In this document: positions 4,369-59,514 of the stretch, piece after piece | Layout of the letters: each line of letters begins with the position of its first letter | How positions within the stretch are numbered: the first letter of the stretch is position 1 | Source of the DNA: Candidatus Woesearchaeota archaeon | GTDB lineage: Archaea; Nanobdellota; Nanobdellia; SCGC-AAA011-G17; GW2011-AR20 | Direction: 5' to 3' | DNA length: 63,980 nt | Assembly (NCBI GenBank): GCA_018302465.1 | Contig: JAGVZQ010000003.1 | Location: 1 to 63,980 of the forward strand | Position numbers and translations under genes: made by a program | The notes under the pieces: generated by a model | What the model was told of the DNA's origin: nothing | The model's database searches: none | The model's input: only the letters and a program-made list of their open reading frames with translations

Positions 4369-4755
4369 ATGAAAAAATATTCAACTTTAATATTAAGATT
4401 AGGATTAGGCATCGTAGTATTATGGTTCTCAATAAACCAGTTTATGAATCCAGATTCCTGGACAAGACTAGTTCCTGGATATATTTCTTTTTTAACTCCT
4501 GCAACAGCAATCTACATAAATGCTGCAATTGAATTAATAATTGGGATTTTATTAATTCTAGGTTTGTTTACAAGAATAGCAGCTTTAATCTTTTCATTAC
4601 ATCTAATCCCAATAATAATCTCATTAGGTTATGGTCCAACAGCAGTTAGAGACTTTGGATTATCCTTAGCTTCACTATCTCTTGCTTTATCAGGAAGCAA
4701 TTACCTAAGTTTAGATAGCAAAATAAAAAAGAGTTTTTTTACAAAAGAGAATTAA
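4369..4755 (+). CDS. DoxX-like small membrane protein
   Basis: About 4 TM helices, N-terminal LILRLGLGIVVLWFSINQF pattern. Confidence 0.45.
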   Translation: MKKYSTLILRLGLGIVVLWFSINQFMNPDSWTRLVPGYISFLTPATAIYINAAIELIIGILLILGLFTRIAALIFSLHLIPIIISLGYGPTAVRDFGLSLASLSLALSGSNYLSLDSKIKKSFFTKEN

Positions 4756-4756
4756 A

Positions 4757-5200
4757 ATGAAAAAATTAATTTTTTTAATTCTTGTATCATTACTAATAAC
4801 TAGTTGTGGGTCAGATAATCCTCAGAATATTAAAGAACAGGATAACTTAGAAATAATTGTTCCAGAAACTACAGAAGTTGGTAGTGTAGATATAACTATT
4901 CCTGAAGCAGAAACAATTGAAGTAAGGAATATGATGAATTCCAACAAGGGAACAGGGATGATGACTTTATTAAACATGGAAGAAGTTAAAAAACATAATT
5001 CAAGAGAAAGCTGTTATTCAGTAGTTGATGATAAGGTATATGATTTAACATCATGGATAGACCAGCATCCTGGAGGAGCAAGTAACATTCTAAAAATATG
5101 TGGTATAGATGGAACTTCCGCCTTTAGGGGAAAGCATGATAACAACCCCAAACAAGCGAATCAGTTAGAAGAATTCTTTATTGGTGATTTAGTAAAATAA
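4757..5200 (+). CDS. Lipoprotein with a cytochrome b5-like heme/steroid-binding domain
   Basis: Lipobox LLITSCGS. CYSVVDDKVYDLTSWIDQHPGG motif. Confidence 0.7.
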   Translation: MKKLIFLILVSLLITSCGSDNPQNIKEQDNLEIIVPETTEVGSVDITIPEAETIEVRNMMNSNKGTGMMTLLNMEEVKKHNSRESCYSVVDDKVYDLTSWIDQHPGGASNILKICGIDGTSAFRGKHDNNPKQANQLEEFFIGDLVK

Positions 5201-5203
5201 GTA

Positions 5204-5325
5204 TGGGCCTGATCAGATTTGAATTCGTCGATAATTTCTTACCTCTGACGACCCCCACCTTATCAGACTCACCTTCTCTTTATCTAGGAAAATGTGGTGC
5301 TCTAACCAGGCTGAGCCACAGGCCC
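5204..5325 (-). tRNA. tRNA-Ile(GAT) with two non-canonical BHB introns: 30/31 (26 nt, 5268-5293) and 53/54 (21 nt, 5224-5244)
   Basis: Acceptor GGGCCTG/CAGGCCC with A73, D-arm GCTC-AGCCTGGTTA-GAGC, loop CTGATAA. Intron 1 BHB: CACC/GGTG, bulges ACA/AGT, inner helix TTTTC/GAGAA. Intron 2 BHB: CGTC/GACG, bulges AGA/AAT, inner helix GGTAA-GAAA-TTATC. The spliced product is a 75-nt cloverleaf. Confidence 0.8.
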
Positions 5326-6129
5326 ATAGTAAGAATTAATATCAACAACACCTTTTAAAATCTTTCGCCTTTCAATTATATTTGTGTTAGGCGGACAAAA
5401 TCCAAATTTCTTCCATACATCATATTTAGTAAGGTGTTTAGATGAACTAAAACCAATTTTATCCATCCAAATATCCAGATTTTTCCTACCACTAATATCA
5501 ATCTGGTGTTCGAAATTTATCTTTCCATTTCTATAGTTTCTTAAATTATAACATACACAAGAATTTATTTTTAAATTATCTAAAATGAACTTGACAAATA
5601 TAATTAAACTTTTACTCTGACTATTGATCCCTATAGAGGGATAGTAATTCCTTCGTTTGTATCTTTTCTTAAAGCTTATGCAACCATCCGTGTCAGTTAA
5701 ACCTTTCAAAAAAGCCTTCTTAATTCTAAAATTTGAACTTTTTATTAGGCTAGGAACATTCATATCTCTTTTAGAACCAGCAGGAAGGCCTATTACCCGA
5801 TTTAAAAAATAAAAAACAGCTTTTGATCTAAAACTAGTTCTTATTGTTGTTTTATTTCCAGCGTAAACCCATACTTTAATATTAAATAAATCCTTGATTA
5901 AGGGTGCTATGTAATCTTTATGAAATTCTGCTTCGTCAATTTCATGTCCATAGTATTCAACATTGTAATCAATAGTATTACAGGTTTTCCGTTTATACGC
6001 ATTAAGACAACCATCGCCAACATGGACACCAATAAAATAAGCCAATTTTTGAGTCATTTTAGTAGGAATAGTAACTTTTCTGTTAATATCAGATTTATTA
6101 AAATCAATCTTAGGAATATCCAGTTTCAT
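5302..6129 (-). CDS. Free-standing double-motif LAGLIDADG homing endonuclease-like protein
   Basis: LAYFIGVHVGDGCL and FLKGLTDTDGCI motifs. The C-terminal region is homologous to ORF 29480-30169. The last 8 codons (YGPVAQPG*) are read from the tRNA-Ile 5' exon. Confidence 0.85.
   Translation of the reverse strand: MKLDIPKIDFNKSDINRKVTIPTKMTQKLAYFIGVHVGDGCLNAYKRKTCNTIDYNVEYYGHEIDEAEFHKDYIAPLIKDLFNIKVWVYAGNKTTIRTSFRSKAVFYFLNRVIGLPAGSKRDMNVPSLIKSSNFRIKKAFLKGLTDTDGCISFKKRYKRRNYYPSIGINSQSKSLIIFVKFILDNLKINSCVCYNLRNYRNGKINFEHQIDISGRKNLDIWMDKIGFSSSKHLTKYDVWKKFGFCPPNTNIIERRKILKGVVDINSYYGPVAQPG
5353..5360 (-). promoter_or_regulatory. Candidate TATA box (TTTTAAAA) of tRNA-Ile, embedded in the LAGLIDADG coding sequence (codons I-L-K)
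   Basis: 27 nt separate the box from the mature tRNA 5' end. The same octamer sits at the equivalent codons upstream of the tRNA at 30185. Confidence 0.5.
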
Positions 6130-6150: not shown

Positions 6151-6193
6151 TTTATAAGTCTCGCGCGAGAGGTTGTCCGATGGACTAGTGAGT
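6151..6193 (-). promoter_or_regulatory. Conserved promoter module, copy A: 28-nt core (6166-6193), 7-nt spacer, TATA (6151-6158)
   Basis: Minus-strand reading: ACTCACTAGTCCATCGGACAACCTCTCG-N7-CTTATAAA, with 21 nt to the ATG. Near-identical to the copies at 22148 and 29415. Confidence 0.7.
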
Positions 6194-6257
6194 TGAATAT
6201 ATATTTTAAATTATACAAAATGAGATAGACTTTTTTGTTTTAAAATACTATTCATCA

Positions 6258-6869
6258 TTATGCTTCTTTTTCAGGAGTTTCTTCATCCTCTCCAATTTCT
6301 TGATTTATTGAAAGAGAATATATACTATAAGGTATTCTGATGAAGAATTCTAGCAGCACTACAACAAGTAAATAATTAAAAATTTTGCCTAAAAACTGGG
6401 GAACCTCATTGAATCTGGTGATTATATCAGGTACTGATATTGTAGGTGAATTTATCAATAAAACTCCAAGAACAGTAAATGGAATAACTCTTGCAAGATC
6501 CCTTGCTAGCTCTCTGTTAAAATAAGCAACTATCCTTGTAGATGCAACAACAGCCATAGTCAATAATAATATTTGGTTTAAACTTTGCTCTCCGCTTAAA
6601 AATAATACAAATAGAGATAATGCCCCAAACCAGATAAAAGTCAGCAATGGAAATATAACTGCATAAGTATAGATATACAATCCTATTGTAATGCTTTTCT
6701 TAAGCAGAAGATGAGAACCCCAGTAATATTTGCGTAAATCAAGAGCAATTAAATCCCTTTTTGAAAGAGAATTGCAGAGATAAAATATAAATATCCCATA
6801 AAGAACAATTCCTAGTGTATAAAGCAATAATGGATAAACTGTAGCATATCCTCCGAATAAGCTCACCAT
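6258..6869 (-). CDS. Polytopic membrane protein, function unknown
   Basis: About 6 predicted TM segments and an acidic C-terminus. No recognisable motif. Confidence 0.4.
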   Translation of the reverse strand: MVSLFGGYATVYPLLLYTLGIVLYGIFIFYLCNSLSKRDLIALDLRKYYWGSHLLLKKSITIGLYIYTYAVIFPLLTFIWFGALSLFVLFLSGEQSLNQILLLTMAVVASTRIVAYFNRELARDLARVIPFTVLGVLLINSPTISVPDIITRFNEVPQFLGKIFNYLLVVVLLEFFIRIPYSIYSLSINQEIGEDEETPEKEA

Positions 6870-10054: not shown

Positions 10055-10787
10055 TCCAGCTTTTTATTGCTTCATTATATGTAAATTCTGTGCCAATATC
10101 AAACCATTTATATGCTTCTCCATAAACATAAGAAAAAACTTTTTCTCTGCCAACTATCCAGGAATTAAAATCACCCATCCTGTCAAGGTTATTTCCCTCT
10201 TCTTTATATTCTTTAAATTTATGCAAAAGATGTTTTGGGAATAAATAGATACCTATAGATGCCAATGTAGACTCAGGATTTTCAGGTTTTTCTTTAAGCT
10301 CAGTAATAACATCATCATTAACCTTTACAACACCCAAGGTTTTTGCTATTTTTTTATCTTTAACGTCATAACAAACAAGTAAAGGGGCTTTTAATTCTAA
10401 GAATTTTGATATCATATTTCTTAATTTAAAATTATGCAGATTATCAGGAAAGAAAATTCCAACATCATCATTGATTTTCTCATCTTCAATTACTTTTAGA
10501 ATATCCCCGACCGTTCCTAACCTTTCTTCTGGTTTATTTGTTCCATTGTTAATTAAATGGATTTGTTTTTTAAAATTTCTAGAATCTAAATATTCTTTAA
10601 ATAAATTAAAAAAGAGATTATTTGTCACAAGATAAATTTCCATTACTTCAGGGACATTATCTAGTTTTTCTAAAGTAAAATCAATAAGCGGTTTATCATT
10701 TATCTTTAAAAGGTGTTTCGGAAGCCCATTTGTTATATTATTAGATAATCTTGTACCATAACCTGCACACCCAAGTATCACCTTCAT
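10047..10787 (-). CDS. Sugar-phosphate nucleotidyltransferase (G1P thymidylyl/uridylyltransferase-like)
   Basis: N-terminal ILGCAGYGTRL (GxGTRL) signature. Confidence 0.75.
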   Translation of the reverse strand: MKVILGCAGYGTRLSNNITNGLPKHLLKINDKPLIDFTLEKLDNVPEVMEIYLVTNNLFFNLFKEYLDSRNFKKQIHLINNGTNKPEERLGTVGDILKVIEDEKINDDVGIFFPDNLHNFKLRNMISKFLELKAPLLVCYDVKDKKIAKTLGVVKVNDDVITELKEKPENPESTLASIGIYLFPKHLLHKFKEYKEEGNNLDRMGDFNSWIVGREKVFSYVYGEAYKWFDIGTEFTYNEAIKSWTT

Positions 10788-22130: not shown

Positions 22131-22147
22131 TATAAAATATATTTTCC

Positions 22148-22190
22148 ACTCACTAGTCCATCGGACAACCCCTCGCACCAACTTTATAAA
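22148..22190 (+). promoter_or_regulatory. Conserved promoter module, copy B: 28-nt core (22148-22175), 7-nt spacer, TATA (22183-22190)
   Basis: ACTCACTAGTCCATCGGACAACCCCTCG-N7-TTTATAAA, with 23 nt to the ATG at 22214. Confidence 0.7.
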
Positions 22191-22213: not shown

Positions 22214-23013
22214 ATGGATTCAAACAAGGCTCTGGTTGTTTTTCAGGGAAAACAGGTAAGAAGAAAATGGTTTAATGATGAATGGTGGTTTTCTGTAGTT
22301 GATATAGTAGGAGCATTAACTCAAACAGATAGAGCCAGAAAATATTGGTCTGATCTAAAAACCAAGCTTCAGGATGAGGGTTTTGAAGTGTCCGAAAAAA
22401 TCGGACAGTTGAAATTAATGGCAGAAGATGGTAAATTAAGGCTCACCGATTGTGCCAACACAAAAAATATGTTTAGGATTATCCAATCTATCCCATCCCC
22501 CAAAGCAGAACCTTTCAAGATGTGGCTGGCACAAGTTGGTTATGACAGAGTAAAAGAAATAGAAAACCCAGAATTAGCCCAAAAAAGAATGAAAGAAATC
22601 TATAAGCAAAAAGGCTATTCTGATGAATGGATAGAAAAGAGAGTAAGAGGCATAGCTATAAGAGATGAGTTAACAGATGAATGGGATAAAAGAGGAGTTA
22701 AAACAGACAAAGAATTCTCAATTTTAACAGCTGAAATTTCAAAAGCAACTTTTTTAATAAAGAAAATCTAAGAGACCACATGAATGATTTAGAATTAATT
22801 TTCACAATGTTAGGGGAAAGAGTGTCTACTGAAATAACAAGAACAGAAGACAAGCAGGGATTTAAGGAGGCAGAGGATGCAGCTAAAAGAGGAGGAAAAA
22901 TCGCAGGTAATGCAAGAAAAGAAACAGAAAAAGAGTTAAGAAAACCAATAACCTCAAAAGAAAATTATCTTGAAGAGCCGGAAATTTATAAGAAAAAAAG
23001 ATTAAGCAAGTGA
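22214..23013 (+). pseudogene. Bro-N / DinD-like (phage antirepressor-type) gene split into two ORFs (22214-22771 and 22780-23013) by a -1 frame change at a T6 run
   Basis: The N-terminal part, VFQGKQVRRKWFNDEWWFSVVDIVGALT, is a Bro-N domain. The second ORF frame reads ..FFNKENLRDHMNDLELIFTMLGE..KRGGKIAGNARKE, the usual C-terminal half of DinD-like proteins. The frames join at T TTT TTA (22750-22756). Confidence 0.7.
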
Positions 23014-29296: not shown

Positions 29297-29383
29297 GGGC
29301 TCGTAACTCAGCTTGGATAGAGTGCTAGCCTTCTAAGCTAGAAGTCGTGGGTTCAAAATTCAATGAAAATCCCATCGGGCCCG
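29297..29383 (+). tRNA. tRNA-Arg(TCT) with a 12-nt BHB mini-intron in the T-loop (59/60; 29358-29369)
   Basis: Acceptor GGGCTCG/CGGGCCC with G73, anticodon arm CTAGC-CTTCTAA-GCTAG. T-arm GTGGG-TTCA-AAA-TTCAA-TGAA-AAT-CCCAT. Splicing after the 2nd bulge nucleotide yields the T-loop TTCAAAT. Confidence 0.85.
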
Positions 29384-29414
29384 CATTTTTATTATTATTT
29401 AATATATATTTTTC

Positions 29415-29457
29415 ACTCACTAGCCCATCGGACAATCTCTCGGGTGAGGTTTATATA
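29415..29457 (+). promoter_or_regulatory. Conserved promoter module, copy C: 28-nt core (29415-29442), 7-nt spacer, TATA (29450-29457)
   Basis: ACTCACTAGCCCATCGGACAATCTCTCG-N7-TTTATATA, with 22 nt to the GTG at 29480. Confidence 0.7.
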
Positions 29458-29479
29458 TTGAAGGTTAAAGAATACTATT

Positions 29480-30169
29480 GTGAGAAAGACAAATATCTAT
29501 GAATTCATTGGAGTGATAATTGGAGACGGTTCCCTCCTGTATAACCCAAAGAGGAGAGTTTACAGACTTGAAATAGCGGGAAATGCCACAGAAGATTATC
29601 CTTATTTTTTAAAGTTAAAACAGTTTATGGTGAAAAGTATGGGATATACACCAAAAATAAGATTCAGGACACACAAAAAAGGAAGAAGCATTTGCTTATA
29701 TTTGGATAATAAAAAGTTTTTAGAGTTTATGAAGAGTCTAGACTTACCATTTGGGAAAAAAACTTTTACAATAACTATCCCTAGTAATTTTCTTAACTGG
29801 AAATATTCAAAACACATAATAAGGGGAATCTTTGAAAGTGATGGTTCACTTTACTTTTCAAAAAGTAAGATAACTACAAATAAACCAACCTATCCCCGAA
29901 TAGAGATAAAAACTTCAAGTGAAAAACTAGTGTATCAAATAAAAAGTATCTTAAGTGAGAATGGTTTTAGTGTACAAACTATAGCTCCAAAAAGAGATAA
30001 AGCTACTAAGATTTACATTTCAGGGGAAAGAATGTTGAATAAGTGGATTGATGAGATCGGATTTAGCAGTAGAAAAAATTTGACCAAATATCTGTATTGG
30101 GATAAATTAGGATACTACACACCTCGTTCTACACTAAGGCAAAGAGAAACCCTTTTAAAATCTCCTTAG
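29480..30169 (+). CDS. Free-standing double-motif LAGLIDADG homing endonuclease-like protein (GTG start)
   Basis: YEFIGVIIGDGSL and IIRGIFESDGSL motifs. C-terminal ISGERMLNKWIDEIGFSSRKNLTKY is homologous to 5302-6129. Confidence 0.85.
   Translation: MRKTNIYEFIGVIIGDGSLLYNPKRRVYRLEIAGNATEDYPYFLKLKQFMVKSMGYTPKIRFRTHKKGRSICLYLDNKKFLEFMKSLDLPFGKKTFTITIPSNFLNWKYSKHIIRGIFESDGSLYFSKSKITTNKPTYPRIEIKTSSEKLVYQIKSILSENGFSVQTIAPKRDKATKIYISGERMLNKWIDEIGFSSRKNLTKYLYWDKLGYYTPRSTLRQRETLLKSP
30153..30160 (+). promoter_or_regulatory. Candidate TATA box (TTTTAAAA) of the downstream tRNA, embedded in the last codons (L-L-K) of the LAGLIDADG gene
   Basis: 24 nt separate the box from the tRNA 5' end at 30185. 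Confidence 0.5.
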
Positions 30170-30184
30170 TTAATTTCATATAAG

Positions 30185-30322
30185 GGGCACATCGCCAAGA
30201 TGAGTTATTCATGGCAACGGTTAAGGCAGTCGATATTCCAAAAGAATAGCTGAACCTGCAGACCATTTGGCCGAGAGCGACTATCGCAGGTTCGAAATTT
30301 AACGAAAATCCTGCTGTGCCCT
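30185..30322 (+). tRNA. tRNA-Cys(GCA)-like gene with four predicted introns: D-loop (30200-30217), 30/31 (30233-30254), 37/38 (30262-30275), 59/60 (30297-30308)
   Basis: Acceptor GGGCACA/TGTGCCC with U73. Three introns have clean BHBs (GCCA/TGGC, CAGT/GCTG, TTCG/CGAA, each with 3-nt bulges and inner hairpins). The 37/38 intron has bulges AGA/AGA and a central helix with a U33 mismatch. The spliced 72-nt product folds as GCCA-AGCGGTTA-AGGC, GTCGC-CTGCAGA-GCGAC, GCAGG-TTCGAAT-CCTGC. Confidence 0.6.
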
Positions 30323-30664: not shown

Positions 30665-30763
30665 ACTTCTTCTTATAATTTTCAATGCCTTTCTTCAACT
30701 TAGGTCATGATTTGTAAAACTTACGATAAGGAATAAAAAATAAATAAAAAAAGAAAAAAGTGT

Positions 30764-56490: not shown

Positions 56491-59400
56491 ATGGCAATTG
56501 TAGATTCCTATAGTTTCTATTCAGGAAACATACCGGTAAAAATAGCTATAGAAAGCGATAGAAACGAATTTGTTCTAATCTACAAAGTTTCAATTTCTCA
56601 AATAAGTGCAAATACAGATATAGTTCTGGATAAAATAAGGGAAGAGCTGATAGAAAAGGTAAAGCTGGGGATTGGAGACATTACAGATCCCAAAAAATTA
56701 GATTTTGTTAAGGAGAAATTTAAAAAAACAATTATTAACCTGATAAAAAAATACTTCCCAGATATCTCAGATGAAACTTTAGATTTTTTTACAACCTATT
56801 TAATGCACAAAAGCTTTGGTCTTGGAAAAGTAGAAATATTAATGAAAGACAAGGATCTTGAAGAGATAGTAATAAACAATGCAGAAGAGCCTATATGGGT
56901 ATATCACCATAAATACGGCTGGTTAAAAACAAATGTTCTGTTAAAAGATGAAGGATTGGTAAAGCACTATTCAAGTTTAATCGGAAGGAAGGTTGGAAGA
57001 AGTATTACTTTGTTAACCCCATTATTGGATGCAACATTGGAAACAGGAGACAGAGTAAATGCAACACTAAACCCAATTTCATCAAAAGGAAACACAATAA
57101 CAATAAGAAAGTTTTCTTCAGACCCAATAACAATTACAAAATTCATACAGAACCAGGTAATGAGCTACTCAACAGCAGCTTTAATCTGGTTAGGTGTTGA
57201 ATATGAATCCTCAGTTTTGATAAGCGGAGGGACGGCTTCGGGAAAAACGAGTGTCCTAAACGCAGTAGGAGAATTCTTCCCTCCAAATCAAAGAATTATC
57301 TCAGTTGAAGACAGTGTTTCAGGGGATTCTGAAATTGTTTACAAAGATAAAGGAGTAATAAAAAAATCAACAATAGGAAACTTAATTGACAGTCAAATAA
57401 AAATTGAAAAGATAGTTTTGCATGATGGTACGGAAATTGCAGAAAACAAAGATGTAGAAATTTTGAGCATGGATAATTATGGAAAAATTTCTTTAGCTAA
57501 ACCCAGTTCTTTTATAAGGCATAAGGTAAAAAAACCACTTATTGAGATAAGATTGTCAAGTGGTAGAAAAATAACTGTTACCAAAGATCATTCTTTATTT
57601 AGTCTAGTTGATAATAAAATTAAGGAAGTAAGCGGTTCTGAAATTAAGGAAGGAACTTTTTTAGCCACTCCTAGAAAAATAGAGTATGAAGGAAGTTTTA
57701 AAATTATAGACCTAAGCATCCATCTCGATAAATTTGAAGATTGCATGGTTTCAGGAAATGTCATAAAGAGATTAATACAGGAACATGGACTTGATTTAGT
57801 TAGAAACAAAAGTAACAGACAATATTATAGAAGAGAAGGAATAGTCCCTGTTGCAGTTTTTAAGAAATTATTGTCTTATATTAAAGAAGAAGACAAGAAA
57901 TCCCTGAGTATAGTTACAAAGAGAAGCCATAAAGAGGGGAGGACCCAATTGCCTTTGTTGATTAATATCGATAATAACTTTGCAACTATAGTGGGTATGT
58001 GGCTTGCAGATGGATGTTATGATATTAGGTCTGTATTGATTAGTGATCCAGCAAAGGAGTCTTGGGAAATTTTACATAAATTTGCAAATATTTTTGGTGC
58101 TAGAGTAAGGCCACATAGTGATAAGGTAACTGCTGTAATAAACTCAAAGATAATAAAGGTTTTATTTAAGGATATCTTGGAATTAAAAGGAAATGCCTAC
58201 ACCAAAAGAATCCCTATATGGGCATTTAACTTAAACAAAGAACTTTCATCTTCATTGCTTAAAGGATACTTCAGCGGGGATGGTACTGTTAAAAAAAATG
58301 AAATATGTGTAAACAGCGCTTCCAGGGGATTATTAAATGATGTTCAGACCCTATTGCTGAGATTTGAAATCCTTTTAAGGGTTAGTTGGAAGCTAAATAA
58401 AGACAAAACTTATGAATCTAGAATCGGTTGCTCTAAATTTTTAAAGAAATTCAAAATAGATATAGGTTTTGTTCAGAATTATAAAAATGTAAAACTAAAC
58501 AAAATATGCGACAGAAAACCTAGTGATTCCAGCGACATTATTCCCTTAGCTAAGAATACATATTTAAAATTAAAACATATCCTTGGAAAAGGTTTCAAAG
58601 AAAATATGCCATACACATCTTGGAAATCCTGGCATGGAAATTATAAAAATTCACATATTGGGAGAAGTTACTTTTCATTATTAATGAAAACTCTTGATAT
58701 CTCTTCAATTTCTTTTGTGGATTCGGAAATAAAAAATATCGTAAGTTTAAGCAAAAATGATATTTTCTGGGATAAAGTAATAGGAATTAAAGAAATAGAT
58801 TTTGAAGGATATGTTTATGACTTAAGCGTCCCAGAAAGAGAAAATTTTATTTGTAATAATATAATCGCCCATAACACTAGAGAAATAACTTTGCCTAAAT
58901 ATCTCCACTGGGTTCCTATGATTACAAGATTACCAAACATAGAAGGAAAAGGTGGGGTTTCTATGCTTGACTTAATAATTAATTCATTAAGAATGAGACC
59001 TGATAGAATAATGGTAGGAGAGATAAGAAGAAAGGAAGAAGCAGAAACATTATTTGAAGCCATGCATACAGGTCACTCAGTTTATGCTACATTGCATGCA
59101 AATAGTGCAGAAGAAACAGTTAACAGGTTGACAAATCCCCCCATTAATGTTCCTAGAACTCTCCTTCCTGCAATAGGAATGGTATTAGTTATGTACAGAA
59201 ACAGAAGAACAGGAATCAGAAGAATTTTCCAGATAGCAGAGATAACAAATGAATCTAATCCAAACGTGCTTTTGCAGTATGATATCTCTCAGGATAAAAT
59301 TTTAACAGCAAATGAATCTGTGAAATTTATGCCTGACCTTGAGATTCAGACAGGTATGTCAAAGAATGAAATAAACTTGGATCTGACAAATAAAATAAAC

Positions 59401-59514
59401 ATCTTAAAATGGATGGTAAAAAAGAATATCACAGATCTTGATGAAATTGGCAGAGTTATTGCAACTTATTACACAAATAAAGAGGGCTTATTAAAGTTCA
59501 TAAGTAAAAATTAA
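56491..59514 (+). CDS. FlaI/PilB/VirB11-class type IV pilus or archaellum assembly ATPase, interrupted by an intein
   Basis: Walker A ISGGTASGKTS. RIISVED|intein|TREITLP. MVGEIRRKEEAETLFEAMHTGH. The extein is about 486 aa. Confidence 0.9.
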   Translation: MAIVDSYSFYSGNIPVKIAIESDRNEFVLIYKVSISQISANTDIVLDKIREELIEKVKLGIGDITDPKKLDFVKEKFKKTIINLIKKYFPDISDETLDFFTTYLMHKSFGLGKVEILMKDKDLEEIVINNAEEPIWVYHHKYGWLKTNVLLKDEGLVKHYSSLIGRKVGRSITLLTPLLDATLETGDRVNATLNPISSKGNTITIRKFSSDPITITKFIQNQVMSYSTAALIWLGVEYESSVLISGGTASGKTSVLNAVGEFFPPNQRIISVEDSVSGDSEIVYKDKGVIKKSTIGNLIDSQIKIEKIVLHDGTEIAENKDVEILSMDNYGKISLAKPSSFIRHKVKKPLIEIRLSSGRKITVTKDHSLFSLVDNKIKEVSGSEIKEGTFLATPRKIEYEGSFKIIDLSIHLDKFEDCMVSGNVIKRLIQEHGLDLVRNKSNRQYYRREGIVPVAVFKKLLSYIKEEDKKSLSIVTKRSHKEGRTQLPLLINIDNNFATIVGMWLADGCYDIRSVLISDPAKESWEILHKFANIFGARVRPHSDKVTAVINSKIIKVLFKDILELKGNAYTKRIPIWAFNLNKELSSSLLKGYFSGDGTVKKNEICVNSASRGLLNDVQTLLLRFEILLRVSWKLNKDKTYESRIGCSKFLKKFKIDIGFVQNYKNVKLNKICDRKPSDSSDIIPLAKNTYLKLKHILGKGFKENMPYTSWKSWHGNYKNSHIGRSYFSLLMKTLDISSISFVDSEIKNIVSLSKNDIFWDKVIGIKEIDFEGYVYDLSVPERENFICNNIIAHNTREITLPKYLHWVPMITRLPNIEGKGGVSMLDLIINSLRMRPDRIMVGEIRRKEEAETLFEAMHTGHSVYATLHANSAEETVNRLTNPPINVPRTLLPAIGMVLVMYRNRRTGIRRIFQIAEITNESNPNVLLQYDISQDKILTANESVKFMPDLEIQTGMSKNEINLDLTNKINILKWMVKKNITDLDEIGRVIATYYTNKEGLLKFISKN
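57313..58875 (+). mobile_element. 521-aa intein (Ser1 ... His-Asn / Thr+1) with an embedded LAGLIDADG homing endonuclease domain
   Basis: Block A SVSGDSEIV, block B VTKDH, LAGLIDADG motifs IVGMWLADGCYD and LLKGYFSGDGTV, block G VYDLSVPERENFICNNIIAHN|T. Removing it restores the ED-TRE motif of the ATPase. Confidence 0.85.

Follow-up and report, generated by a model that had tools for sequence, protein, structure and literature searches.

Inspection of a 63,980-nucleotide (nt) stretch from a Candidatus Woesearchaeota archaeon (assembly GCA_018302465.1, contig JAGVZQ010000003.1, positions 1 to 63,980; hereafter the window) reveals a compact DNA module upstream of three genes, two encoding LAGLIDADG nucleases and one a Bro-N protein. 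The module is a real, non-random, and lineage-wide cis element, and most probably consists of a leaderless promoter joined to a factor-binding site that lies upstream of it. Our preferred explanation, to which we assign a probability of roughly 0.55, is that it is a lineage-specific promoter with an upstream factor-binding site that genes share as a switch, and that it also forms the arm behind which nuclease genes exchange. The argument draws on how the module is built and conserved, where it lies with respect to the promoter, which genes follow it, and the replacement of one gene by another with a breakpoint at the TATA box.

The original prediction described three copies with a common layout, and reading of the sequence confirms their positions, order of parts, and pairwise core identities (27/28, 26/28, and 25/28). 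A degenerate 28-mer scan of the window matched the core pattern ACTCACTAGYCCATCGGACAAYCYCTCG at 6166-6193 on the minus strand (copy 1) and at 22148-22175 (copy 2) and 29415-29442 (copy 3) on the plus strand. No other core was found in the window with up to three mismatches allowed, and even at that tolerance the chance expectation from 100 dinucleotide shuffles is 0.00. In each copy, a 14-nt AT box abuts the core, which is followed by 7 nt, an 8-nt TATA box, and the start codon. Copy 1 (minus strand) has the AT box AAAATATATATTCA at 6194-6207, directly upstream of the exactly matching core ACTCACTAGTCCATCGGACAACCTCTCG at 6166-6193; the G/C-rich segment CGCGAGA, at the position of the transcription factor B recognition element (BRE), and the TATA box CTTATAAA together occupy 6151-6165, with the TATA box at 6151-6158. 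Copy 2 (22134-22190, plus strand) begins 4 nt past the stop codon of the Nre gene and comprises an AT box (22134-22147), core (22148-22175), 7-nt segment (22176-22182), and TATA box (22183-22190). The corresponding parts of copy 3 (29401-29457, plus strand) lie at 29401-29414, 29415-29442, 29443-29449, and 29450-29457.

The gap between TATA box and start codon is 21 nt for copy 1 (ATG at 6129), 23 nt for copy 2 (ATG at 22214), and 22 nt for copy 3 (GTG at 29480), which places the core at -65 to -38 relative to the start codon. A hidden Markov model (HMM) of the module, applied at maximum sensitivity to the whole of the DNA collected, detected no weaker copies in the window or in approximately 400 kb of related loci (designated by L numbers below); the module is an all-or-none element. 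The original description of the repeated block can be extended in one respect. Copies 1 and 2 additionally share about 55 upstream bases, which are the 3' end of Nre at copy 2 and an ectopic duplicate of it at copy 1.

The position of the module was compared with a promoter survey in which the upstream regions of 72 open reading frames (ORFs) of the window were aligned on their best TATA-like octamer. A TATA-to-start distance of 21-23 nt, found in 19 of the 36 window genes with a recognisable TATA box, is the modal, leaderless spacing. The module TATA box lies at this distance in all families without a Shine-Dalgarno sequence before the start codon, and the one family with 58-nt spacing has the Shine-Dalgarno sequence GGAGGTG before its ATG. 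That Shine-Dalgarno sequences are absent exactly where the spacing is 21-23 nt argues that the second TATA box, the one after the core, is the working promoter of the downstream gene. At -5, -4, and -3 before the TATA box, each position is an A in 15-22 of 27 ordinary window promoters, and tRNA promoters in the same genomes have an ordinary GAAA-type BRE and TATA box. The module instead has CGCGAGA, CACCAAC, or GGTGAGG at the BRE position, all of them G/C-rich and non-consensus. The concern that the core is merely the generic promoter of the lineage can be set aside within the window, where it occurs three times among about 70 genes and is missing from 35 other TATA-bearing promoters.

Conservation of the module and the genes behind it

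Two pattern scans extended the family beyond the window. The first covered one genome per species with 19 fixed core bases and returned four matches in three Woesearchaeota metagenome-assembled genomes (MAGs) as well as two bacterial matches. The latter (L001 and L004) are without flanking similarity and were discarded as chance. The second covered Joint Genome Institute (JGI) metagenome contigs with 20 fixed core bases and returned 37 loci, mostly from the Ga02095xx and C687J groundwater sample series. No viral contig carrying the core was found by pattern scan. Subtraction of the two bacterial matches from 46 pattern matches leaves 44 genuine instances, including the three of the window and 41 outside it. 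These collapse to 19 distinct versions of 66 nt at approximately ten loci, and L060 provides one additional version with a single core mismatch.

An alignment of 18 distinct versions, from approximately ten loci and several species, shows where the module is constrained. Within core positions 1-21, only columns 2 (C/T) and 10 (T/C) vary. The AT box and the TATA box hold constant positions throughout this alignment: the AT box (consensus aAAATATATwTTyM) lies at a fixed distance from the core in 18/18 versions of the window's lineage, and the core end is separated from the TATA box by 7 nt in all 18. Core positions 22-28 and the following 7 nt vary among versions, yet are locus-specific. These 7 nt had been described as variable; their length is indeed fixed, but they are not free to vary, as they follow a loose consensus CGCGAGN with an invariant A at the fifth position. 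Because the versions are locus-specific, the likeness among them reflects constraint rather than recent copying, and the invariance of the core over 21 bp across loci and species points to selection on the core itself.

Translation and domain scanning of the first ORF after each copy identified 12 different downstream genes at the approximately ten loci: eight LAGLIDADG families, Bro-N, a YprB-like RNase_H_2 exonuclease, an Lhr helicase, and an orphan small-ORF pair. The LAGLIDADG members are the two window proteins (275 and 229 aa) and those of L022 (283 aa), L032 (324 aa), L042 (364 aa), L019 (259 aa, LAGLIDADG_2), L035 (315 aa), and L023 (439 aa). Six of the eight families score above the curated Pfam cut-off for LAGLIDADG_3 or LAGLIDADG_2; L035 falls below it, and L023 was assigned through BLAST to other members. 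The families are at most 31% identical pairwise, with several pairs lacking any detectable relation. Catalytic-type acidic residues are retained, as the GDG and DT[DE] motifs are conserved in the copy-1 protein family.

Pfam searches agree with the assignment of two LAGLIDADG genes and one Bro-N gene in the window. Copy 1 precedes a free-standing, double-motif LAGLIDADG gene of 275 aa (5302-6129, minus strand; LAGLIDADG_3, E=5.6e-10), and copy 3 precedes a 229-aa LAGLIDADG gene with a GTG start (29480-30169, plus strand; LAGLIDADG_3). The Bro-N gene behind copy 2 (22214-23013, plus strand; Bro-N, E=9e-13) is split into a 185-aa ORF (22214-22771) and a 77-aa ORF (22780-23013). It is intact at 278 aa in L043 and L007, and the window copy looks like a pseudogene.

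Host-type genes also stand behind the module. The YprB-like exonuclease gene does so in three species-level variants, and a pair of orphan ORFs of 50 and 32 aa, followed by a metallophosphoesterase gene, in two or three variants. The 50-aa ORF was considered as a recognisable regulator and rejected, with only three near-identical matches and no Pfam match. All core instances in the three reference MAGs stand before host-type genes (YprB-like exonuclease, Lhr helicase, and small-ORF operon). The proposed link to selfish genes is thereby upheld as a strong association, with eight LAGLIDADG families and Bro-N among the 12 downstream genes, but not as an exclusive one.

Conservation is deepest at the copy-1 locus. 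The copy-1 LAGLIDADG protein has 89 homologues, and syntenic orthologues extend down to 33% identity. The shared order is a tRNA-Asn (or another gene), the module, the nuclease gene, and a tRNA that abuts or overlaps the 3' end of that gene. In L060, where the protein is 68% identical, the core matches at 27/28 positions. At 56% protein identity, the upstream element reads ATCCGACATATCCGACATCCACGCGCAGGG + TTTATAAAG in L044 and is alike in L046 with one repeat unit fewer. At 50%, it reads AAACGACATAAACGACACGTACGCGTAGCGC + TTATAAAG in L047 and TTGCATGTGCAAACCACCCGCGCAGGAC + TTATAAGG in L054; at 40%, ACCACTAGACGCACTGGACAACCCCTCACGTAGGATA + TTTAAAC in L050; and at 33%, CACTGGACATATGGACGTCAGG + TATTTAAATA in L055. 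L053 (37%) has no recognisable upstream element. In the distant orthologues, the sequence has thus changed and the layout has been kept, with GGACA/CGACA-type units, a GC-rich near-palindrome, and a TATA box. This is the pattern that a regulatory site co-evolving with its factor would leave. L047 and L050 have no AT box, so the unit does not depend on it. No second copy of the diverged cores of L044, L047, L050, L054, and L055 was found in their 7-20 kb loci.

The YprB-like gene is widespread in Woesearchaeota, with 377 homologues at E<1e-10. The idea that the module precedes it throughout the Woesearchaeota was rejected, since the module is absent in L056-L059; such distant genes are either part of an operon or preceded by a promoter of the ordinary GAAA type. 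At this gene, acquisition of the module thus took place in the window's lineage.

On the mechanism that we favour, the core, with its near-invariant first 21 bp, would be a protein-binding site directly upstream of a non-consensus BRE, and the TATA box would drive a leaderless mRNA. A single sequence-specific factor, recruited by or occupying the core, would switch all module genes together, in a mode like that of archaeal activators which bind just upstream of a weak BRE. The predicted regulon would include the YprB-like exonuclease, the Lhr helicase, the small-ORF/phosphoesterase operon, many free-standing LAGLIDADG genes, and Bro-N. Since every copy carries the same stretch of about 60 bp, the module could also serve as a constant left arm for the replacement of nuclease genes via recombination. 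Occupation of the core by a protein, an activating rather than a repressing role for that protein, and DNA damage or recombination as the possible signal are our inferences. The factor may be a winged-helix activator, a copy-1-type protein, the Bro-N protein, or the Orc1/Cdc6-like protein of L017, which are named here as candidates only. A shared regulatory site most probably accounts for the position of the module, its rigid conservation, its locus-specific variants, the diverged versions at orthologous genes, and the presence of host genes. Among the three options of the original prediction, a shared operator or activator site is the best fit.

Several considerations weigh against this mechanism. 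The candidate core-binding factor is proposed from sequence alone, and 21 invariant, non-symmetric bp exceed what a typical dimeric archaeal regulator imposes. An activator site also leaves the conserved AT box upstream of the core without a role. The 44 instances were collected as near-exact cores, with an exact 20-base pattern, so these counts are not copies per genome. In addition, the DNA-repair theme depends on just three or four host genes, and for the Lhr gene of L003 about 160 nt separate the TATA box from the start, so that this gene could have a promoter of its own. A 335-aa LAGLIDADG gene in L011 (20-1027, minus strand) lacks the module. Finally, the gain of the module at the YprB-like gene would also fit a portable promoter.

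Gene exchange behind the module

Of the nine loci with a visible neighbour, eight place the module directly behind a co-directional tRNA or the stop codon of a co-directional gene, at 13-38 nt, and the nuclease gene extends right to the next gene. Within these confined sites, close relatives differ by replacement or by presence and absence (tRNA-Cys locus, L016, and L013). The clearest case is the copy-3 locus. Immediately upstream of copy 3 is a tRNA-Arg(TCT) with a T-loop insert (29297-29385, plus strand; 29.1 bits to the Rfam tRNA model), and the two are also found together in L015, L021, L022, L032, L036, and L038. On the other side, the cassette is bounded by a tRNA-Cys(GCA) (30185-30322, plus strand), as delimited by alignment with L022 and L032. 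L022 is 98.6% identical to the window up to 29458, the first base past the 8-nt TATA box of copy 3. It then holds an unrelated 283-aa LAGLIDADG gene, and the match resumes at window position 30274, inside tRNA-Cys; the gap-free match begins only in the 3' part of this tRNA because the L022 tRNA lacks the window's introns. A third gene, encoding a 324-aa LAGLIDADG protein, lies between the same flanks in L032 and L038. The three proteins of this locus are not detectably related (E>0.2), and no empty allele was present among the loci recovered.

Exchange takes other forms elsewhere. At the Nre locus, the module and Bro-N gene are replaced as a unit in L038, with boundaries at the Nre stop codon and just past the Bro-N stop codon, and L023 carries a module with a LAGLIDADG gene at the same spot in the opposite orientation. 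L016 is the L019 locus with its nuclease gene reduced by deletion to a 36-aa stub and its module kept. L013 matches the window at 99.5% identity in the region of copy 1 and differs from it elsewhere: in L013 1-540, a LAGLIDADG gene runs into tRNA-Gly(CCC), and in the corresponding window segment (1009-1887) KsgA directly precedes that tRNA.

The duplicate of the Nre 3' end upstream of copy 1 (6213-6270, minus strand) is 100% identical to the Nre/Bro-N locus of L007 and L034. The whole of window 6270-6171, spanning the Nre end and part of the module, matches L007 6-105 at 100%, compared with 81-87% identity over the rest of Nre. The patch is not found at the orthologous loci L025 and L041. On the right it joins within the core, and on the left at an 8-nt microhomology, AAAAGAAG. 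The patch looks like the product of break repair near a module with another module as template, in a single event. A C/D-box small RNA in the approximately 55 nt upstream of copies 1 and 2 was considered and rejected, as these bases belong to the coding 3' end of Nre or to its ectopic copy; an Rfam sR52 match there (13.7 bits) is noise.

Such polymorphism invites another explanation, namely that the module is the conserved 5' end of mobile units of module plus gene that land after stop codons, with solo modules as the remnants of decayed nucleases. This would agree with the placement next to stop codons or tRNAs in 8/9 loci, the gain and loss of module and Bro-N as a unit at Nre, and the reversed unit in L023. 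The module beside the nuclease stub in L016, the 100-nt patch copied from another module locus, and the lack of a module at distant YprB-like genes also favour it. On balance, however, we consider it unlikely. At the tRNA-Arg/tRNA-Cys locus, only the gene changes and the module remains. Each nuclease family is tied to one locus, the copy-1 type being syntenic from groundwater to marine lineages, and module versions are specific to loci and not to nuclease families.

The expected structures of a mobile unit are also missing. An HMM search of either strand found no second module copy, direct or inverted, at the other end of the cassettes. No terminal repeat, no common 3' motif of the cassettes, and no target-site duplication at their junctions was found, nor was any transposase or integrase seen beside module copies at the loci examined. 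We rejected the end of a miniature inverted-repeat transposable element (MITE), insertion sequence (IS), or transposon on the lack of terminal inverted repeats, target-site duplications, and a second end. An integron-like cassette array was rejected likewise, as there is no 3' repeat and the copies are single and dispersed, each with its own promoter. The caveat that the block might belong to a known repeat or IS family finds no support, given the lack of MITE, terminal-repeat, or Rfam signals.

The suggestion of a conserved cassette end fits in part. It fails at the tRNA-Arg/tRNA-Cys locus, where three unrelated nuclease genes interchange behind a module that stays, and for the orthologous modules that persist at the same loci across species; it would fit the module and Bro-N gene gained and lost together. 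The shared-site and portable-promoter explanations are compatible, in that a regulatory module may spread with nuclease genes and outlive them.

A virus or plasmid origin was rejected, as the window is chromosomal and the core is absent from viral contigs. BLAST against phages and plasmids gave only chance-level matches, all within the AT-rich flank. Genes of the window include those for Nre, aTrm56, MetRS, AlaRS, SecD, AglB, ribosomal protein L10, and a secretion ATPase with an intein, and with its intron-rich tRNAs and G+C content of about 31% the window represents an archaeal chromosome. The original assignment of the organism to the DPANN archaea is upheld.

Other roles for the core and neighbouring features

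Could the core be a target of the nucleases themselves? It might be the recognition site of a LAGLIDADG protein, for example of the copy-1 type, and function as an operator or else be cut, with repair of the break driving gene exchange. Monomeric LAGLIDADG proteins have targets of about 18-22 bp, which the invariant stretch resembles in length and asymmetry. The core diverges along with the copy-1-type protein in distant lineages and is kept at 68% protein identity. Footprints of break repair could be read in the patch junction inside the core and in the gene replacement breakpoint at the TATA box, and the acidic catalytic residues are conserved. There is precedent for autorepression by a homing endonuclease at an operator resembling its homing site (PMC2988022). 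Nonetheless, the chance that this explanation is correct appears small. The core does not simply track the protein, given that the core of L050 (40% protein identity) is nearer to the window core than that of L044 (56%). The reference MAGs have the core before host genes with no nuclease gene seen nearby, and an intact cleavage site beside the enzyme's own gene would be self-destructive. Binding of the core by these proteins is itself a supposition.

A more speculative proposal, with a slim prospect of being right, is that the 21-bp core is the docking site of a domesticated LAGLIDADG protein or of an Orc1/Cdc6 paralogue, and that each module combines the role of a switch with that of a hotspot for programmed breaks or recombination. 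If so, it would represent a 'promoter-docking' exchange of nuclease cassettes, reminiscent of integrons and built on homing endonucleases. An Orc1/Cdc6-like gene with Cdc6_lid and AAA domains is located in L017 (8794-9846, minus strand), followed by a zinc-ribbon ORF, immediately upstream of the small-ORF module, which lies about 300 nt downstream of the Orc1/Cdc6-like gene. The core was also compared with an origin recognition box (ORB) and rejected as one: it matches the mini-ORB TTCCAGTGGAAAC at 8/13 ungapped positions, with a chance expectation of about 0.2 per core. No cluster of ORB-like repeats was seen around the cdc6-like gene of L017.

A reading in which the AT box acts as an additional promoter, and the core begins a leader or small RNA that folds into a regulatory structure, is very improbable; although the AT box resembles a TATA box 4 nt upstream of the core and would put a start site inside the core, and small hairpins (GTCC/GGAC and CTC..GAG) can be drawn, paired cells amount to 81.5% against 81.4% in shuffles with no covariation gain for either hairpin, the sole variable position of the GTCC/GGAC helix breaks the pair, the second helix is paired in 69% of cells, folding energies (z-scores of -0.3 to -1.7) are indistinguishable from those of shuffles, no Rfam match over the module was found at permissive thresholds, distant orthologues that keep the core and TATA box lack the AT box, and the absence of Shine-Dalgarno sequences exactly at 21-23 nt after the second TATA box favours the latter as the promoter. 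A structured cis-regulatory or small RNA was rejected on covariation, folding energy, and Rfam. Together with the TATA spacing, these results bear out the original placement of the core upstream of BRE and TATA, outside any obvious RNA element. We also rejected a split-tRNA half, a tRNA-derived element, or a bulge-helix-bulge intron boundary: the two tRNAs beside copy 3 are complete, and the core contains no D-arm, T-arm, or bulge-helix-bulge motif.

The tRNAs that flank the cassettes are intimately connected with the nuclease genes. A tRNA-Ile(GAT) with two inserts (5204-5325, minus strand; 28.1 bits to the Rfam tRNA model, E=0.0023) is overlapped by the last codons of the copy-1 LAGLIDADG ORF, and an intron-less orthologue of it follows the copy-1-type gene of L054. 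These last codons hold GGCGAAAGATTTTAAAAGG (5347-5365, minus strand), a consensus BRE/TATA about 21 nt before tRNA-Ile. Dual coding with this BRE/TATA, and the overlap, explain the conserved C-terminal peptide ERRKILKG of the copy-1 protein family. Likewise, the end of the copy-3 gene holds the BRE/TATA of tRNA-Cys, GAGAAACCCTTTTAAAAT (30145-30162, plus strand), about 22 nt before that tRNA.

The window tRNA-Cys contains three inserts (18, 22, and 14 nt) that are absent from its orthologues in L022 (~1028-1135) and L032 (~10620-10700), and tRNA intron content therefore differs among close strains. An additional T-loop insert of about 10 nt is common to all three alleles. The tRNA-Arg and tRNA-Cys of the window share a similar T-loop insert of about 10-11 nt at the same position (ATTCAATGAAA and ATTTAACGAAA), and ARAGORN misses both tRNAs. 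In L011, the region upstream of the module-less LAGLIDADG gene, up to position 1095 (CACGGACCGATAGTTTAGTGGTAAAA), resembles the 5' part of a tRNA gene.

Further differences among relatives were observed in the vicinity of these loci. A 564-nt segment of the window (4395-4958), spanning most of a 128-aa ORF (4369-4755) and the start of a cytochrome-b5-like ORF (4757-5200), is missing from the otherwise collinear L013 and L025. L022 has an extra 1.2 kb or so (1476-2706, versus window 30688-30732) after the ASCH gene, with ORFs of 170 and 207 aa that are absent from the window. In L035, the gene after the nuclease (~5290-5420) encodes VLGAGGRD, then a 20-nt insert AGAGCTTAAAGTTCCGCGAG flanked by TCGCG/CGCGA, and in-frame FQNF..FKDNP; the insert may be a mini-intron in a protein gene, or a frameshift. 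Location of the L042 nuclease cassette within uppS was rejected, as uppS is intact and overlaps the 3' end of the nuclease ORF in another frame. LAGLIDADG inteins are present in a type II/IV secretion ATPase (window 56491-59514), a ribonucleotide reductase (L033 512-4144), and MCM (L054 1-2888). These genomes carry many nuclease elements of several kinds.

Relation to known systems and significance

Archaeal activators are known to bind immediately upstream of BRE (PMC5512572). For example, TFB-RF1 of Pyrococcus furiosus leaves its footprint over -47 to -70, adjacent to a weak BRE (PMC5937170); the predicted site in the module, defined by its sequence, lies at -65 to -38 from the start codon. 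The sites of TFB-RF1, of EarA at the fla promoter, and of the Sulfolobus ara-box resemble the module in lying upstream of BRE/TATA, in having a deviant BRE, and in being shared by few promoters. With its putative site upstream of BRE, apparent working TATA box, and deviant BRE, the module has the sequence features of an activator-dependent promoter. It differs from these systems in two respects. The known archaeal sites consist of a short palindrome (TCTG-N5-CAGA) or of repeats of 6 bp (four boxes), whereas the module has 21-28 near-invariant, non-symmetric bp, and its predicted regulon is dominated by nuclease genes.

The nuclease genes have their closest parallel in the seg and mob genes of T-even phages, which are likewise wedged in spacers, present, absent, or replaced among relatives, and in some cases located in tRNA clusters (PMC2988022). 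As LAGLIDADG ORFs that lie outside introns and inteins and retain catalytic residues, they belong with free-standing homing endonucleases, with cleavage as a predicted activity. The T-even genes, however, are of the GIY-YIG or HNH type and reside in phages, rather than being LAGLIDADG genes in an archaeal chromosome. Many T4 free-standing genes are also promoter-less, whereas here at least eight unrelated families share one dedicated, near-identical upstream element. As in the module, a long specific sequence occurs at the endonuclease's own promoter in I-TevI (PMC2988022). In T4, each enzyme has its own operator overlapping the promoter; the module presents one sequence, upstream of BRE, for unrelated enzymes and host genes.

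The Orc1-2 DNA-damage regulon of Sulfolobales depends on an ANTTTC element at -23 to -55 shared by damage genes (PMC6061795). The module recalls it through its promoter-proximal position, its exonuclease and helicase host genes, and the Orc1/Cdc6-like neighbour in L017. The ANTTTC element has no sequence similarity to the core, and the link is thematic only.

The literature searched yielded no DPANN regulon, no report of this element, and no account of free-standing LAGLIDADG genes from DPANN genomes. How DPANN archaea regulate their genes is scarcely known, and the module provides both a 28-bp bait for a binding protein and a defined set of genes. It also illustrates an unusual persistence of selfish nucleases in a streamlined cellular genome, in which at least eight unrelated LAGLIDADG families appear to use one host-type switch. 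Their genes are packed tightly between conserved genes, often tRNAs, and one is exchanged for another downstream of an unchanged promoter arm. In T4, the seg and mob genes contain the promoters of downstream genes, which is thought to protect them against deletion (PMC2988022); the archaeal nuclease genes would similarly be hard to delete because the promoter of the downstream tRNA sits in their coding sequence. If the switch does sense DNA damage or recombination, the expression of selfish nucleases in these archaea would be tied to the repair machinery of their host.

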